This document shows, one piece after another, positions 1,983 to 27,145 of a DNA stretch of 64,000 nucleotides; the stretch's first letter is position 1; every line of letters begins with the position of its first letter. The position numbers and the translations under genes were made by a program. The DNA is taken from IMG/VR virus record IMGVR_UViG_3300030708_002673, positions 1-64,000 of that record. One strand, written 5' to 3'. This DNA is from a virus. Its lineage: Duplodnaviria; Caudoviricetes. The notes under the pieces are model-generated. The model was not told where the DNA came from, did no database searches, and saw only the letters and a list, made by a program, of their open reading frames with translations.

Positions 1983-3082
1983 TGGATAGACAAAAGCGAG
2001 CGTTGGTTCTGGGTGCCGGTGGTTTCATCGGTAGTCATATGGTCAAGCGACTCAAGTCCGAGGGGTATTGGGTTCGCGGTGTAGACATCAAGATCCCTGA
2101 CTTCTCTGAATCAGCAGCGGATGAATTCATCCGTGGTGATCTTCGGGATTACTCTTTTGTCGAACGTGTAATTCAGTACAAGGGAGAGCAGGGTAACTTC
2201 TACGAGACTGTTCCCTACCAGTACATCGATACCTTCGATGAGATCTATCAGTTTGCTGCCGACATGGGTGGTGCTGGTTACATCTTTACTGGTGAGCATG
2301 ACGCTGACATCATGCACAACTCTGCCAGCATCAACCTGAACCTGCTGGAAGCAGTCCACAAATTCAATGAGACCTTTGATGGTCGCCTGAAGGAGTGGAC
2401 TGAGTGCAACCGTCCTAAGAAAGAACAACCTACGAAGATCTTCTACAGTTCTTCTGCTTGTATGTACCCCGAGCATAACCAGCTCGATCCTGATAACCCT
2501 GACTGTCGTGAAGAATCAGCGTACCCAGCAGCACCAGACTCAGAGTACGGGTGGGAGAAACTTTTCTCTGAACGTCTCTACTTTGCTTACAACAGGAACT
2601 ACGGCATTCCTGTTCGTGTTGCTCGTTACCACAACATCTTTGGTCCTGAAGGGACCTGGGACGGTGGAAGAGAGAAGGCACCAGCTGCAATCTGCCGTAA
2701 GGTCGCTTACCTCCCGCTCCAGGGTGGAGCAATCGAGGTGTGGGGAGATGGCTTACAGACTCGTTCCTTCCTGTTCATTGACGAATGCATTGAAGCGACT
2801 CGACGGTTGATGGACTCCGACTTCATGGGTCCAGTCAACATTGGTTCCGAGGAGATGGTCACCATCAACCAACTGGTTGAGGTTGCAGCAAAGGTTGCAC
2901 GTAAGGACGTGCAGAAGATTCACGTTGACGTTCCCCACACAGGTGTCCGAGGACGTAACTCCAATAACGATCTAATCCGAGAGAAATTAGGTTGGGATTA
3001 TTCACAAACCCTTGAAGAGGGGATCTCTCGAACTTACAATTGGATCATCCAACAAATCGGCAAGAACCTTGAGGGCGCATGA
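1982..3082 (+). CDS. GDP-mannose 3,5-epimerase-like NAD-dependent epimerase
   Basis: GAGGFIGSH, FAADMGGAGY, YSSSACMYPE, YGWEKLFSE, GGREKAPAAICRK, WGDGLQTRSF, GVRGRNSNN. Confidence 0.85.
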   Translation: MDRQKRALVLGAGGFIGSHMVKRLKSEGYWVRGVDIKIPDFSESAADEFIRGDLRDYSFVERVIQYKGEQGNFYETVPYQYIDTFDEIYQFAADMGGAGYIFTGEHDADIMHNSASINLNLLEAVHKFNETFDGRLKEWTECNRPKKEQPTKIFYSSSACMYPEHNQLDPDNPDCREESAYPAAPDSEYGWEKLFSERLYFAYNRNYGIPVRVARYHNIFGPEGTWDGGREKAPAAICRKVAYLPLQGGAIEVWGDGLQTRSFLFIDECIEATRRLMDSDFMGPVNIGSEEMVTINQLVEVAAKVARKDVQKIHVDVPHTGVRGRNSNNDLIREKLGWDYSQTLEEGISRTYNWIIQQIGKNLEGA

Positions 3083-3735
3083 ACACTACCTATAACTATG
3101 AACGAGACTCCCTGAAGAGTCCTTTCTCTGGACACACCAAAGTCTTTGAAAACTTCTCCCAGGCATACCAGGATCTGTTTGTCCTGACCATGCTGAAAGG
3201 AAAGAAGAATGGTAAGTATGTGGAGGTGGGTGCCAACCACCCCCAGACCATGAGCAATACCTTCCTTCTGGAGACTGTGTTTGGTTGGCGTGGGTTCTCG
3301 GTAGAGATTGAGCGATCAATGTGTGAGGTCTTCAACGGAGACATGGCACGACAGAACCACTGCTATGAAGCAGACGCCACTACGTTTGATTACTCTGAGG
3401 CAATTGCTAAAGAGAAGTGGCAGGGTCGTGTTGACTACTTCTCTGTTGACTGTGAACCTCCTGAGGTGACATTCAAGGCACTCAAAGCATTCCCCCACGA
3501 TGAGTTCCGTGCCAGTGTCATCACCTTTGAGCATGACTCATACAAGGATGGAGACACCATCCGTGACCACTCACGTCAGTTCCTGGAAGGTCTTGGATAT
3601 CAACTGGTGTGTGCCAGCGTCTGCAATGGTGGTAATCCTTATGAGGATTGGTGGGTTGATCCTGCTGTAGTGAAGGAGTCAGTATGGAAACCCTTCGAGT
3701 GTGTTGACAAAGAGGCAAGAAACATTTTTGTATGA
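3079..3735 (+). CDS. FkbM-like SAM-dependent methyltransferase
   Basis: YVEVGANHP...SNTFLLE...WRGFSVE, DYFSVDCE, VITFEHD, EDWWV. Confidence 0.7.
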   Translation: MNTTYNYERDSLKSPFSGHTKVFENFSQAYQDLFVLTMLKGKKNGKYVEVGANHPQTMSNTFLLETVFGWRGFSVEIERSMCEVFNGDMARQNHCYEADATTFDYSEAIAKEKWQGRVDYFSVDCEPPEVTFKALKAFPHDEFRASVITFEHDSYKDGDTIRDHSRQFLEGLGYQLVCASVCNGGNPYEDWWVDPAVVKESVWKPFECVDKEARNIFV

Positions 3736-17254: not shown

Positions 17255-17278
17255 ACACGTTACAAAATGTAATGAACA

Positions 17279-17392
17279 CCCCGCAAACCGAGACCTCTAG
17301 GGTGTCTAAAGCACGTCTCTCATACCTCACCTGGAGGGTAGGTGAGGAATATTTTTTCAGTGTTCCCCGCACTATTACATAACCCTTTTTCA
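17279..17392 (+). ncRNA. Structured psbA 5' leader, probably PhotoRC-II-type motif
   Basis: GAGAC(17290-94)/GTCTC(17315-19) stem enclosing a GTGT/GCAC hairpin, then CCTCACCT(17325-32)/AGGTGAGG(17340-47); family name from recall only. Confidence 0.6.
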
Positions 17393-24905: not shown

Positions 24906-25355
24906 ATGGCAAAACTTCCTAACAATCCACTGGTCTCCGAACTGTTCAAAGCAGTGCACGGTGCTAAGACTGTGGATAAGAAGGTTGAACTACTGGAATC
25001 TCATAAACGGGATGACGTAAAGGCAATCCTTATCTGGAACTTTGATAAGGGTATCAAGTCTGCCATCCCTGAGGGTGACGTTCCTTACAAGAAGAACGAA
25101 TCACCTGCTGGTACTGATGGACACACCCGTCTGGTGCATGAGTGGCGGTCACTGTATAACTTTATCCGTGGCGGCAACGATAAGATCTCTCAGATGCGTC
25201 GGGAGACCCTGCTGATTCAACTGTTGGAGTCACTCCATGCTGATGAGGCAGAGATTGTTACCCTGGTCAAGGATGGTGAACTGCAAAGCAAGTATCGCAT
25301 CACTCGTAGTGTTGTAGAGAAAGCATACCCAGAGATCCACTGGCGTGATAAGTGA
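24906..25355 (+). CDS. Conserved T4-like cyanophage protein (DUF6433-like)
   Basis: LVSELF..V..AKT, ILIWNFD, PEGDVPY, LLESLHADEAE. Confidence 0.75.
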   Translation: MAKLPNNPLVSELFKAVHGAKTVDKKVELLESHKRDDVKAILIWNFDKGIKSAIPEGDVPYKKNESPAGTDGHTRLVHEWRSLYNFIRGGNDKISQMRRETLLIQLLESLHADEAEIVTLVKDGELQSKYRITRSVVEKAYPEIHWRDK

Positions 25356-26464
25356 AGTTTCTCATTGATCTAACAGATCATTGCAACTCCAAGTGTCCTC
25401 TGTGTGCCAGACATAAGACATCATATAACGATGAGGTTGCGGTGCTCGCACCCGATCCATCAATGAACCTGTCAAAGATTTCACTTGAACAGTGGAAGAC
25501 ATGGTTCCCACAAGAGACCCTTGAGAAGACAGAGTTGATCTACTTCCAAGGGTCTTTTGGTGAGCCAACATTATGTGATGATCTGCTTGAGATATATGCC
25601 TACACCCTGAAGTCCAACCCCAACATCGTCTTCCAGATGAGTACCAATGGTGGTACCCGTGACGATGCATTCTGGGGAAGACTTGGTGCTCTCATGGGAG
25701 CATCACACAAAGATAGTTTCCTCATCTTTTCTATTGATGGTCTAGAAGATACCCTGCAGCAATACCGTGTGGGTGTGGACTATAAGAAGGTGATGCAGAG
25801 TGCTAAAGCATTCATCAAGGCAGGTGGTCCTGCTGTGTGGAGGATGCTGGTCTTCAAGCACAACCAACATCAGATACAAAGATGTAAAACATTGAGCAAA
25901 CTATGGAAGTTCAAAGACTTCCAACACACTCGTGTCAATGATATGTATGACGCTAGTGGACGTGGAGACGGTAAGTTTACGTATTCCTACAGGGATAAGG
26001 TGCACACCCTGCAGGTAGCAGATGATCCCAACCAAACGTACCGTCCAGACCCTGTAGCAGAGGACTCAGAGGTCGTGTGTCGCTATGGTCATACCAAAGG
26101 TAGTCCTGGGCAACTGAGGATCGATAGTAGGGGTGTGGTGCACGCCTGCTGCTTCCACCAGTCACGTCTCAGGTTCTTCTACCCTGGATATTATATTGAC
26201 AATAACCCTGATGCACCTGCGGTCTTCCGTGACATCAACAACCCGAACAAGGGAGTGGGTGCAGAGTATATGCAGAAGGTCTTCTGGGACAACGTGATTC
26301 CCTTGATTGAGGAGCAGGGTGGTATCAAATCCATCTCCTTAGAGCACCACTCATTACATGATGTGTTGCAGACTCCCTTTTTCCAACATACTCTGGTAGA
26401 ATCGTGGAGTAATAGACCGCACATCTGTGCAGACTATTGCGGTAAGAAAAGATGTATCCGTTGA
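25352..26464 (+). CDS. Radical SAM protein with C-terminal Cys cluster (SPASM/twitch-like)
   Basis: CNSKCPLC (CxxxCxxC), FQGSFGEP, STNGG, SIDGL, ACC, ICADYCG. Confidence 0.9.
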   Translation: MKFLIDLTDHCNSKCPLCARHKTSYNDEVAVLAPDPSMNLSKISLEQWKTWFPQETLEKTELIYFQGSFGEPTLCDDLLEIYAYTLKSNPNIVFQMSTNGGTRDDAFWGRLGALMGASHKDSFLIFSIDGLEDTLQQYRVGVDYKKVMQSAKAFIKAGGPAVWRMLVFKHNQHQIQRCKTLSKLWKFKDFQHTRVNDMYDASGRGDGKFTYSYRDKVHTLQVADDPNQTYRPDPVAEDSEVVCRYGHTKGSPGQLRIDSRGVVHACCFHQSRLRFFYPGYYIDNNPDAPAVFRDINNPNKGVGAEYMQKVFWDNVIPLIEEQGGIKSISLEHHSLHDVLQTPFFQHTLVESWSNRPHICADYCGKKRCIR

Positions 26465-26468
26465 TACA
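26453..26468. promoter_or_regulatory. NtcA-binding palindrome overlapping a -35 box
   Basis: TGTA-TCCGTTGA-TACA fits TGTA-N8-TACA, with 6-bp arms TGTATC/GATACA. Confidence 0.7.
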
Positions 26469-26488
26469 GTTTTCCTTTTCTATATAAT
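26461..26488 (+). promoter_or_regulatory. Sigma70 promoter of the riboswitch unit
   Basis: TTGATA(26461-66)-N16-TATAAT(26483-88). Confidence 0.75.
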
Positions 26489-26503
26489 ACTACATCATGA
26501 AAT

Positions 26504-26724
26504 CGTTCATCCCTTCGGGGACGCAAGTAAGTCGCGGAACGGAGCGTTCATCCCATGATTGATCTTCTTCTCTACACGGGCATGCTTTGCACTGACGCTG
26601 AGGACATAATCCGACGTGCCAGTACACATGATGCCATTAGTGCAGCAGTTCAAGCTGAGGTGGTAGCGACCGTAAAGGAAGCAACGCCTGAGTGCAATTG
26701 GGACGCAAACGACTGAAGGAACGG
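26504..26724 (+). ncRNA. Doubled glutamine riboswitch (glnA/Downstream-peptide type) with an ORF inside a loop
   Basis: P1 CGUUC/GAACG, P2 UCCC-UUCG-GGGA, CGCA, E-loop AGUA...GAA, P3 AGUCG(26530-34)/CGACU(26710-14); second CGUUCA-UCCCA...UGGGA-CGCA core inside. Confidence 0.85.
26555..26716 (+). CDS. 53-aa peptide encoded within the riboswitch loop
   Basis: GGAG at 26541-44; MIDLLLYTGMLCTDAEDIIRRASTHDAISAAVQAEVVATVKEATPECNWDAND*. Confidence 0.7.
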   Translation: MIDLLLYTGMLCTDAEDIIRRASTHDAISAAVQAEVVATVKEATPECNWDAND

Positions 26725-26756
26725 GGCAAAAATCCCATTCTTTTAGGAGACCTACC

Positions 26757-26921
26757 ATGAACACACTGAAGATGATCCGCCGCCAGATCGAGAAGGCAGC
26801 TGCCCTTCACGATGCACAGATCACTCACACTGCTTACCGTGGTGTGAAGTATGAGTGCAAGCAACCCATTGAGGAAGCTCATGGGAACTTCTGCTATCGC
26901 GGACGGACCTACACCAAGTGA
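26757..26921 (+). CDS. DUF4278-like small protein (54 aa)
   Basis: AGGAGA RBS at 26745-50; two YRG motifs (AYRGVKY, CYRGRTY); position downstream of a glutamine riboswitch. Confidence 0.8.
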   Translation: MNTLKMIRRQIEKAAALHDAQITHTAYRGVKYECKQPIEEAHGNFCYRGRTYTK

Positions 26922-26947: not shown

Positions 26948-26975
26948 AAGGGAAGGTTTGACACCTTCCCTTTTC
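26948..26975 (+). terminator. Rho-independent terminator closing the riboswitch unit
   Basis: AAGGGAAGGT-TTGAC-ACCTTCCCTT then TTC. Confidence 0.85.
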
Positions 26976-26986
26976 TGTTTTATAAT
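26958..26986 (+). promoter_or_regulatory. Consensus sigma70 promoter of the thyX operon
   Basis: TTGACA(26958-63)-N17-TATAAT(26981-86); -35 lies in the terminator loop. Confidence 0.85.
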
Positions 26987-26992
26987 AAGACC

Positions 26993-27145
26993 ATGGAACG
27001 AGACAAACTCAAACTAATCGTTTCCGACTTGGAAATGCTGCTTAGTGCCCTCAAAGCAGAGGTCTACTCAGATGTAGAAGCGTATCGCTTCGATCAGATT
27101 GACCCTGTTGAAATTGATTACGACGAAACTTACGAAGGTCCATGA
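26993..27145 (+). CDS. Small acidic hypothetical protein (50 aa)
   Basis: MERDKLKLIVSDLEMLLSALKAEVYSD...; ATGA overlap with thyX. Confidence 0.75.
   Translation: MERDKLKLIVSDLEMLLSALKAEVYSDVEAYRFDQIDPVEIDYDETYEGP

Follow-up and report, generated by a model that had tools for sequence, protein, structure and literature searches.

A probable nested, strand-swapped double glutamine riboswitch around a small gene in a T4-like cyanophage

The DNA analysed here (the window, 64,000 nt) comprises positions 1 to 64,000 of virus record IMGVR_UViG_3300030708_002673 (IMG/VR), an 82-kb contig, and derives from a T4-like cyanophage. Downstream of a radical-SAM gene (25352-26464) and upstream of a 50-codon open reading frame (ORF) and thyX, it carries a cassette of ~480 nt, counted from promoter to terminator, which consists of an RNA element (26504-26724) and two small genes, ORF53 and ORF54. 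The stretch around the element matches 426 GenBank phage records at ~68-73% identity in BLAST searches, labelled Synechococcus phage (352), 'Cyanophage' (65) or Prochlorococcus phage (8), and the arrangement described below recurs in many hundreds of phage relatives. An initial annotation had read the element as two interlocked glutamine aptamer cores, and our comparative analysis supports this view by covariation, RNAalifold consensus folding, single-sequence folds and alignment to Rfam. We conclude that the leader is probably one nested, strand-swapped double glutamine riboswitch. The sequence elements, each of which was found where the annotation had placed it, including the 175-nt insert of helix P3 (26535-26709), are the following:

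26504-26508, plus strand: 5' strand of the outer P1 helix, CGUUC, with its partner at 26719-26723 and followed by A26509
26510-26521, plus strand: P2 hairpin (UCCC 26510-26513, UUCG loop, GGGA 26518-26521)
26522-26529, plus strand: junction CGCAAGUA, with CGC 26522-26524 as the outer ligand-site strand and AGUA 26526-26529 as the E-loop strand
26530-26534, plus strand: 5' strand of the shared P3 helix, AGUCG, with its partner at 26710-26714 and followed by C26535
26536-26549, plus strand: inner P1' hairpin, starting with GGAACGG 26536-26542, in which GAACG 26537-26541 and CGUUC 26545-26549 (CGUUCA 26545-26550) flank the loop GAG 26542-26544
26551-26555, plus strand: 5' strand of P2', UCCCA, with its partner UGGGA at 26699-26703
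26555-26716, plus strand: ORF53, 53 amino acids, PHROG family phrog_504, located in the P2' loop and extending across the inner core's 3' half as far as UGA 26714-26716
26699-26703, plus strand: 3' strand of P2', UGGGA, at which P2' covaries
26704-26709, plus strand: junction CGCAAA, with CGC 26704-26706 as the inner ligand-site strand; codes for Asp-Ala-Asn of ORF53
26710-26714, plus strand: 3' strand of the shared P3 helix, CGACU, covarying with AGUCG
26715-26718, plus strand: junction GAAG, composed of the E-loop strand GAA and a G, and matching the Rfam consensus GAAGGAACG
26719-26724, plus strand: 3' strand of the outer P1 helix, GAACG, and G26724, the proposed long-range partner of C26524

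The outer elements follow the plan of the glutamine-I riboswitch (class I, glnA RNA), which was reportedly described by Ames and Breaker in 2011 and whose structure is said to have been determined by Ren et al. in 2015. As annotated, P1, P2, the E-loop strands AGUA and GAA, and P3 match this plan at the sequence level. The junction CGCAAGUA equals the Rfam Glutamine consensus CGGAAGUA except for a G to C change and is invariant in our alignments A3 and A6; the roles of its strands in the ligand site and the E-loop were assigned from solved structures (PMC6698751). Class I P3 is a short hairpin, a feature that is absent here: the P3 helix covaries, but its far end opens into a second junction. 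The long-range pair reads CGC...GGAACGG in the window, like glutamine-II, whereas glutamine-I has CGG...GGAACGC. Swaps relative to the Synechococcus elongatus aptamer had been annotated for both this pair and P1; measured against the Rfam consensus, the long-range pair is indeed swapped and P1 is unchanged. The core motifs are rare in the window, as CGTTCATCCC occurs twice, at 26504 and 26545 only (0.12 expected), and GGGACGCAA-N8-10-GGAACGG twice, at 26518 and 26700 only (0.00 expected). The spacing from P2 to GAACG is 15 nt in both units.

We propose that both units build one structure. The outer core would adopt the glutamine-I plan, with P1 (26504-26508/26719-26723), the P2 hairpin, CGCAAGUA, P3 (26530-26534/26710-26714) and GAAG, and the far end of P3 would form a second three-way junction from P1' (26537-26549, with its GAG triloop), P2' (26551-26555/26699-26703) and CGC 26704-26706. 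Each CGUUC would pair with the GAACG of the other unit; the partner assignments are 26504 with 26719, and 26537 with 26545 as a hairpin. Given that the two junction strands pair as P3, one ligand pocket would lie at each end of this helix.

Relatives were gathered by ORF53 (44 loci), by ORF54 (80 retained out of 567 matching stretches) and by targeted variant patterns, and one locus came from a genome scan. An anchor-based parse yielded 178 modules with 142 distinct cores, later scans added ~130 more, and covariation was assessed across >250 related cyanophage loci; some of this sample was retrieved or parsed with the ligand-contact motifs fixed. Alignment A3 contains 52 sequences, and relatives in which P2 and P2' are both short (85-100 nt) are referred to as compact. 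The cores are near-invariant across relatives, whereas the ORF53 proteins diverge down to 33-66% identity. Scanning genome contigs for the junction motif gave mostly chance occurrences among the matches listed, and only locus L294 was real; its 194-kb contig, binned as Synechococcus, is probably phage, and among 301 genomes sampled from the family of the genome with that bin label, the motif was found in that one only, not in the other 300. A reading of loci L015, L017 and L111 as single-unit relatives without a first core was rejected; in L341, a gene occupies the inner hairpin loop and the first half is found ~600 nt upstream.

All four P1 strands of the window are mutually compatible, and two other arrangements compete with nested pairing. 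The units could stand side by side, as P3-less mini-aptamers (26504-26542 and 26545-26724) with a P1 each and with the middle hairpin as a competitor only, or, as the annotation had suggested, the nested and tandem/pseudoknot registers could be mutually exclusive and both functional, giving a bistable switch. Natural variation discriminates between these arrangements. P1 varies at its fifth pair only, and in the 52 sequences of A3 the nested structure leaves 99.9% of the cells paired (tandem, 99.1%), contains 7 pairs with changes on both sides and has a covariation score that was reached by 0 of 500 shuffles. With nested pairing, outer P1 has CG as its fifth pair in 49 sequences and UA in 3, and inner P1' has GC in 48 and CG in 4, with none unpaired in either helix. 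In the tandem register, the pair of the first CGUUC would be CG in 47, UG in 1 and unpaired in 4 sequences, and that of the second CG in 47 and unpaired in 5. The larger sample gave the same picture: wherever the middle strand reads GCAACG, the next strand is CGUUGA (121 of 121 modules, in which the first and last strands are CGUUCA/GGAACG in 92 and CGUUUA/GAAACG in 15, and the last strand was not found in 14), and a last strand GAAACG comes with a first strand CGUUUA in 11 of 11 parsed modules. On a tree of the ORF53 interior we counted four independent changes in inner P1', one in outer P1, three and two to three in P3, and four in P2, and both columns of a pair always changed together.

The side-by-side arrangement has several points in its favour, as the sub-threshold Rfam hits of the window use the proximal GGAACG, both units share the 15-nt spacing, transcription completes the first unit ~180 nt ahead of the last strand, and 157 doublets have been listed as pseudo-cooperative tandems (Sherlock et al., 2022; PMC9481103), among which our compact relatives probably figure. 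However, every natural fifth-pair variant breaks both tandem P1 helices (as C-C, G-G, U-C, G-A or C-A), without exception in 121 + 11 modules, P3 covaries between the units, and for compact relatives the nested register is preferred by RNAalifold, by single-sequence folding and by the Rfam model alike, which makes two separate units very unlikely. A bistable switch is likewise highly improbable: the constrained energies of the window RNA are close (nested, -68.0 kcal/mol; tandem, -65.5 kcal/mol) and a transient tandem fold might possibly form during transcription, but selection keeps the nested pairs only, and large clades are unable to form the tandem fifth pairs.

The nested structure also draws on the other helices. 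P3, which would connect the two units, shows GC 38, AU 12 and UA 2 at pair 5, and UA 49, AU 2 and UG 1 at pair 3 (n=52). Beyond this alignment, 63 of the 64 position-5 variants with a readable partner are compensated (AGUCA/UGRCY in 60 and AGUCU/AGACU in 3, with 1 exception), all five true position-3 variants combine AGACU with AGUCU, and locus L018 has two G-U pairs; no position-4 variants were found in the targeted variant scan of relatives. P2 carries compensatory changes at pairs 1, 3 and 4. P2' is 100% paired in the 52 sequences. Of 93 distinct versions that bear an ORF, 92 retain 4 bp or more; exchanges (UA/CG, CG/UA and CG/UA) occur, and some versions have long extensions (e.g. 10 bp in L071). 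G-U pairs are tolerated in a strand-specific manner in P2', P3 and the platform hairpin described below. Covariation of P3 and P2' across homologs, on which the annotation had staked its fold beforehand, is thus present for both helices, and the shared AGUCG/CGACU helix that it postulated covaries between the units. The AUUG/CAAU extension that it had added to P2' is peculiar to the window, as relatives read CAAC or UAAC there. RNAalifold on an ORF-containing alignment (A1) offered a GCG/CGC closing helix instead of AGUCG/CGACU; the columns of the former are all invariant, and the variant scans back the latter. Two relatives depart from the common P3. Locus L142 (reverse strand, ~2470-3340) contains two cassettes ~500 nt apart, one of them compact, and P3 of the other is extended by 3 nt on either strand (AGCCGACU for both), with 6 of 8 positions pairable. 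L097 (360-470) is aberrant: its P3 is 7 bp long and quite unlike the others in sequence (GAGCAUA/UAUGCUC), and CGCA is missing from the inner junction; a first CGUUCA was looked for within 330 nt and not found.

Independent fold predictions converge on the same arrangement. From a plain MAFFT alignment of 28 compact relatives, RNAalifold returned exactly the nested structure (24 pairs, 8 of them compensated), and the single-sequence energy minimum is the nested fold in 6 of 8 compact relatives. In compact relatives, the alignment to the Rfam glutamine-I model (RF01739) begins at the first CGUUCA, ends at the last GGAACG and places 39-43 nt within P3; its scores of 40.2, 39.4 and 37.8 bits exceed the cut-off of 35. 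The outer core is therefore class I by the Rfam criterion whenever the model can accommodate the insert. The window itself scores 25.9 of 33 bits for Glutamine-II (RF01704; 26502-26548, sub-threshold), and the first unit of the compact relative L138 reaches 35.7 bits for this model against a gathering threshold of 33. The z-score of the full-length window RNA fold (-0.73) is uninformative by itself. Taken together, all five helices and the competing hairpin at 26713-26746 are predicted pairings that sequence comparison among relatives bears out.

The inner core, which the annotation had described as a permuted aptamer inside P3, indeed follows the class I plan in circularly permuted order, with the break in P3 and the ends joined at P1. 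Glutamine in the two solved classes touches the C1:G40 pair, C39 in the G2:C39 triple and, within the CGC/CGG strand, the 2'-OH of the G; it is stacked between this G and the long-range pair (PMC6698751). The corresponding nucleotides of the two cores are:

C1:G40 contact, plus strand: outer C26504:G26723, inner C26545:G26541
G2:C39 contact, plus strand: outer G26505:C26722, inner G26546:C26540
G of the CGC strand, plus strand: outer G26523, inner G26705
Proposed long-range pair, plus strand: outer C26524:G26724, inner C26706:G26542

The ligand-contact nucleotides of both cores are present and invariant in all of our alignments, for which some relatives had been selected on these very motifs, and the inner junction CGCA[A/C]A is conserved in nearly all relatives. 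C26524 and G26724 are both invariant, and covariation is consequently silent on the outer long-range pair. In the proposed fold, both pockets would bind L-glutamine.

P2' closes around a real gene, as had been annotated, although the enclosure of the 53-codon ORF is incomplete: the A of its AUG (A26555) is the fifth P2' pair, and its last codons run beyond the helix, through the P2' 3' strand, CGCAAA and CGAC, to UGA 26714-26716. Sequence conservation indicates that ORF53 (phrog_504, E-value 3e-22) is protein-coding. Conservation at codon positions 1, 2 and 3 is 0.79, 0.85 and 0.71 for codons 5-37, and there are no frameshifts among the relatives of this family. For codons 38-53, all three values are high (0.96, 0.99 and 0.91), which points to an overlapping RNA constraint. 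The protein is modelled as two helices (predicted local distance difference test score, pLDDT, 78), and a search for its function in Pfam and the ESM Atlas gave no match. Within the coding region, at 26668-26698 of the window, GUAAAGGAAGCAACRCCUGAG resembles GAAGGAACG and may represent either an additional RNA element or a decoy strand. The predicted ribosome site of ORF53, GGAG 26541-26544, belongs to inner P1' and its loop and lies 10 nt 5' of the AUG; among cores with an ORF in P2', 82 of 98 have GAG as this loop, compared with 5 of 24 hairpin-only cores (Fisher p = 9e-9, kinship ignored). The ribosome site, start codon, last four codons and stop of ORF53 are thus all aptamer nucleotides. 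Position 26715 is G or A only, placing a UGA or UAA stop at the border of P3 and the E-loop, and loop proteins from different families share DAND, DAHD or DAQV as their final residues before the stop, coded by CGCAAA and P3.

Genes are not confined to P2'. The P2 loop holds a 66-codon gene in about one third of the sampled relatives, and hairpins and ORFs in P2 and P2' occur in all four combinations (66, 39, 24 and 5 distinct cores, under biased sampling), with loop occupants from at least 4 PHROG families or without a family. Six modules carry a 192-aa homing-endonuclease-like gene (phrog_314, E 9e-9; no Pfam hit) in a 597-nt inner-hairpin loop and keep both swapped P1 pairs. We observed this gene at L341 (2256-2834) and also in L343, L348, L349 and L351, and it probably occupies the inner loop of L015, L017 and L111 as well. 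The invariant core may serve as a homing site. Coming and going of genes in all three loops, the homing-endonuclease-like gene itself and the far stronger conservation of cores than of cargo genes could even be taken to mean that the core motifs act at the DNA level, as sites of recombination or homing on either side of mobile small genes, and form no RNA structure. We find this barely credible, as the compensatory changes fit RNA pairing, the strand-specific G-U pairs have no DNA equivalent, and compact relatives reach the Rfam cut-off for a validated riboswitch class; a DNA element and a nested RNA are, moreover, compatible with each other.

Downstream of the outer core, the RNA could form an alternative structure that involves the start region of ORF54:

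26713-26746, plus strand: alternative hairpin and candidate expression platform, pairing 26713-26721 with 26738-26746 (CUGAAGGAA/UUCUUUUAG) and GGGG 26723-26726 with UCCC 26733-26736
26745-26749, plus strand: ribosome site of ORF54, AGGAG, 7 nt before the AUG and conserved in most relatives
26757-26921, plus strand: ORF54, 54 amino acids, DUF4278-like (IF17-like) with two YRG motifs; PHROG family phrog_545, E 3e-31

Against Pfam DUF4278 (PF14105), ORF54 gives an E-value of 1.5e-4 and 22.5 bits, under the cut-off of 25.3, and 16 of 17 members of its family match DUF4278 at E <=0.01. The hairpin, of 13 bp, belongs to the minimum-energy structure predicted for the window RNA without constraints, and RNAalifold predicts the same hairpin from 52 relatives, with CURAAG opposite YUUYAG and GGG opposite CCY. 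Its pair at 26715 is GC in 29, GU in 13, AU in 9 and broken in 1 of these sequences, and it covaries with the UGA/UAA stop of ORF53. CUAAA tails go with UUUAG in 32 of 32 distinct cases by listing (the pattern count of 31 of 32 reflects a pattern-matching error at L100), and CUGAA tails with UUCAG in 55 and UUUAG in 27 cases (Fisher p = 9e-11, uncorrected). The hairpin draws its bases from the final two pairs of P3, from GAA of the E-loop and the G that precedes GAACG, and from the terminal nucleotide of P1 together with the long-range G; three further P1 nucleotides are taken up in the window. It ends on the AG of AGGAG. Because it uses nucleotides of P3, the E-loop and P1, it cannot coexist with a complete outer aptamer. 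We regard it as the likely platform of an ON switch, in which it would represent the OFF state. Cyanobacterial DUF4278/IF17 genes are turned on by glutamine riboswitches in which the ligand melts a short helix next to P1 and thereby frees the masked ribosome site (PMC6212724), and a hairpin that reaches into AGGAG beside P1 fits this published mechanism.

Two further features of this region were recorded. GUUCA 26505-26509 is complementary to UGAAC 26758-26762 in the invariant AUGAAC start of ORF54 and is paired with it in the minimum-energy fold, with no informative covariation. Relatives with long tails (L049:640-700, L006 and L025) carry an extra element between the last GGAACGG and the ribosome site, consisting of AACGGAUCC, a covarying hairpin of 4-5 bp and GAGAAGGUUAA; it has no Rfam match and is absent from the window.

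The nested fold and the platform suggest a regulatory cycle. Without glutamine, the 26713-26746 hairpin would form, take up the end of P3, GAA and the 3' strand of outer P1, and cover the first bases of the ORF54 ribosome site AGGAG. Glutamine would stabilise the nested fold and exclude the hairpin, so that ORF54 would be translated, as in the ON switch of cyanobacterial gifB. Since the folded state buries the GGAG and AUG of ORF53, translation of this gene would be expected mainly before closure or when the RNA is open, and a ribosome ending ORF53 at UGA 26714-26716 would have to unwind P2', P3 and P1, thereby resetting the sensor. Whether strand exchange creates a cooperative two-pocket fold with ORF53 off and ORF54 on, with loops as insertion sites and a sensor reset by ORF53 translation, is more tentative, and we consider this full scenario possible but rather doubtful.

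Several observations weigh against the nested double riboswitch. P1 covariation stems from one of five pairs, and the change in outer P1 is a single evolutionary event. The window scores 28.9 of 35 bits for RF01739, below the cut-off, and in the proximal register (26502-26548, with the proximal GGAACG); we attribute the low score to the 175 nt held by P3. The nested fold (-68.0 kcal/mol) lies above the unconstrained fold (-81.1 kcal/mol), favouring the hairpin state by ~13 kcal/mol, a gap for which ligand binding and tertiary contacts would need to compensate. The 26713-26746 helix contains three G-U pairs in the window and could coexist with P1, like the P2 helix in glutamine-II, rather than compete with it. 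A covarying helix, 26713-26718/26741-26746, indeed encloses GAACG in a glutamine-II-like manner; it overlaps P3 and the E-loop, which also covary, and may therefore be an alternative state. As for the inner core, it has no E-loop, its junctions (CGCAAA and C) are shorter, the position of its long-range G within a 3-nt loop may be sterically tight, and in L159, the sole exception of this kind, it reads CGG with no compensating change. These features of the inner core would also suit an explanation in which only the outer core binds glutamine and the inner junction is a structural or regulatory module, left from an old duplication, that carries the start signals of ORF53. This explanation could further account for L097, which keeps its 7-bp P3 and an outer-type junction with an inner junction devoid of CGCA, and for the full Rfam match of the outer core only. 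It is nevertheless unlikely in our view, as the inner contacts C26545, G26546, C26540, G26541, G26542 and CGC 26704-26706 are invariant or nearly so next to coding sequence that drifts to 33-66% protein identity, and glutamine-II binds its ligand without an E-loop (PMC6698751).

We also consider it probable, as part of the nested-fold reading judged as a whole, that the cassette is a self-contained phage unit of promoter, riboswitch with ORF53, ORF54 and terminator. Its predicted transcription signals are:

26454-26467, plus strand: candidate NtcA-type palindrome GTA-N8-TAC, read from the sequence, overlapping the -35 box TTGATA
26461-26488, plus strand: predicted sigma-70-type promoter, TTGATA, 16 nt, TATAAT (11/12 in a consensus scan)
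26948-26982, plus strand: terminator-like hairpin (26948-26972) and U tract, found in a consensus scan as a 10-bp stem followed by TTCTGTTTTA

Transcription is predicted to start a few nt 5' of 26504, and most relatives have a -10-like box 13-18 nt 5' of CGUUCA. Of 142 distinct relatives, 103 carry GTA-N8-TAC in the 70 nt that precede the first CGUUCA; in most relatives it lies upstream of a TTGACT -35 box, whereas it overlaps the -35 box in the window. A perfect promoter match (TTGACA, 17 nt, TATAAT; 26958-26986) lies inside the terminator, before a small ORF at 26993. Elsewhere in the window, a PhotoRC-II RNA at 17264-17360 exceeds the Rfam cut-off with 75.3 bits.

The element resembles several known systems without coinciding with any of them. 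It shares with glutamine-I (RF01739) the three-way junction of the outer core, with a near-consensus CGUUCA, P2, CG-AAGUA, P3 and GAAGGAACG, the position upstream of a DUF4278/IF17-like gene and, likely, an ON-type translational platform beside P1, as in the Synechocystis gifB leader (PMC6212724). In contrast to glutamine-I, P3 leads to a permuted second core (175 nt including a gene) instead of a hairpin, and the long-range pair is C:G, the glutamine-II form. With glutamine-II (Downstream-peptide motif, RF01704; 6QN3, PMC6698751), it has in common the CGC...GGAACGG pair and the same ligand contacts, an inner core without an E-loop, a helix flanking GGAACG (here 26713-26718/26741-26746) and the location before short DUF4278-like peptides, in that class those of marine picocyanobacteria. 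The crystallised class II RNA is a domain-swapped dimer with hybrid ligand-site helices, and its two-piece form assembles on glutamine (PMC6698751), which indicates that the glutamine pocket tolerates strand exchange. In the cyanophage RNA, however, the swap would be intramolecular and fixed by evolution, within a nested junction rather than an H-type pseudoknot.

Tandem glutamine riboswitches, with which the element shares two core motifs in a row before one gene, have been reported as a series of separate units with one platform apiece (Weinberg et al., 2010, PMC2864571; Sherlock et al., 2022, PMC9481103). Given that the cores described here would exchange P1 strands and share P3, neither would fold alone, unlike such tandems. 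Tandem glycine riboswitches and the kissing hairpins of guanidine-II likewise create two like ligand sites from interacting repeats, possibly with cooperativity, but their domains fold alone and then dock, whereas the pocket helices of the nested fold would use strands of both repeats. The ORFs of group I and II introns provide another parallel: whole genes, some of them homing-endonuclease-like, reside in terminal loops with long-range helices closing around them. There, the host RNA is a ribozyme; here, it would be a riboswitch, and the ribosome site, start, last four codons and stop of the cargo are sensor nucleotides. In the riboswitch literature searched, which did not include Ames & Breaker 2011 and Ren et al. 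2015, we found no description of a nested register or of loop genes. The competing platform hairpin (26713-26746) and the construction of ORF53 signals and termini from aptamer nucleotides are new here.

McCown et al. (2017) found only two glutamine aptamers in cyanophages (PMC5473149), and RNAs that fall below the Rfam cut-off and carry genes in their loops may explain this survey count. If the nested fold were true of many doublets, these would represent one interlocked two-pocket fold, and their dose-response would be cooperative rather than pseudo-cooperative. It would also constitute natural intramolecular domain swapping in an aptamer, an echo of the swapped class II dimer. Genes whose ribosome site, start and stop double as sensor nucleotides amount to a compact overlapping code. 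The cassette resembles a phage copy of a host circuit in which glutamine controls IF17, an inhibitor of glutamine synthetase, and phage control of host nitrogen assimilation thereby becomes testable.

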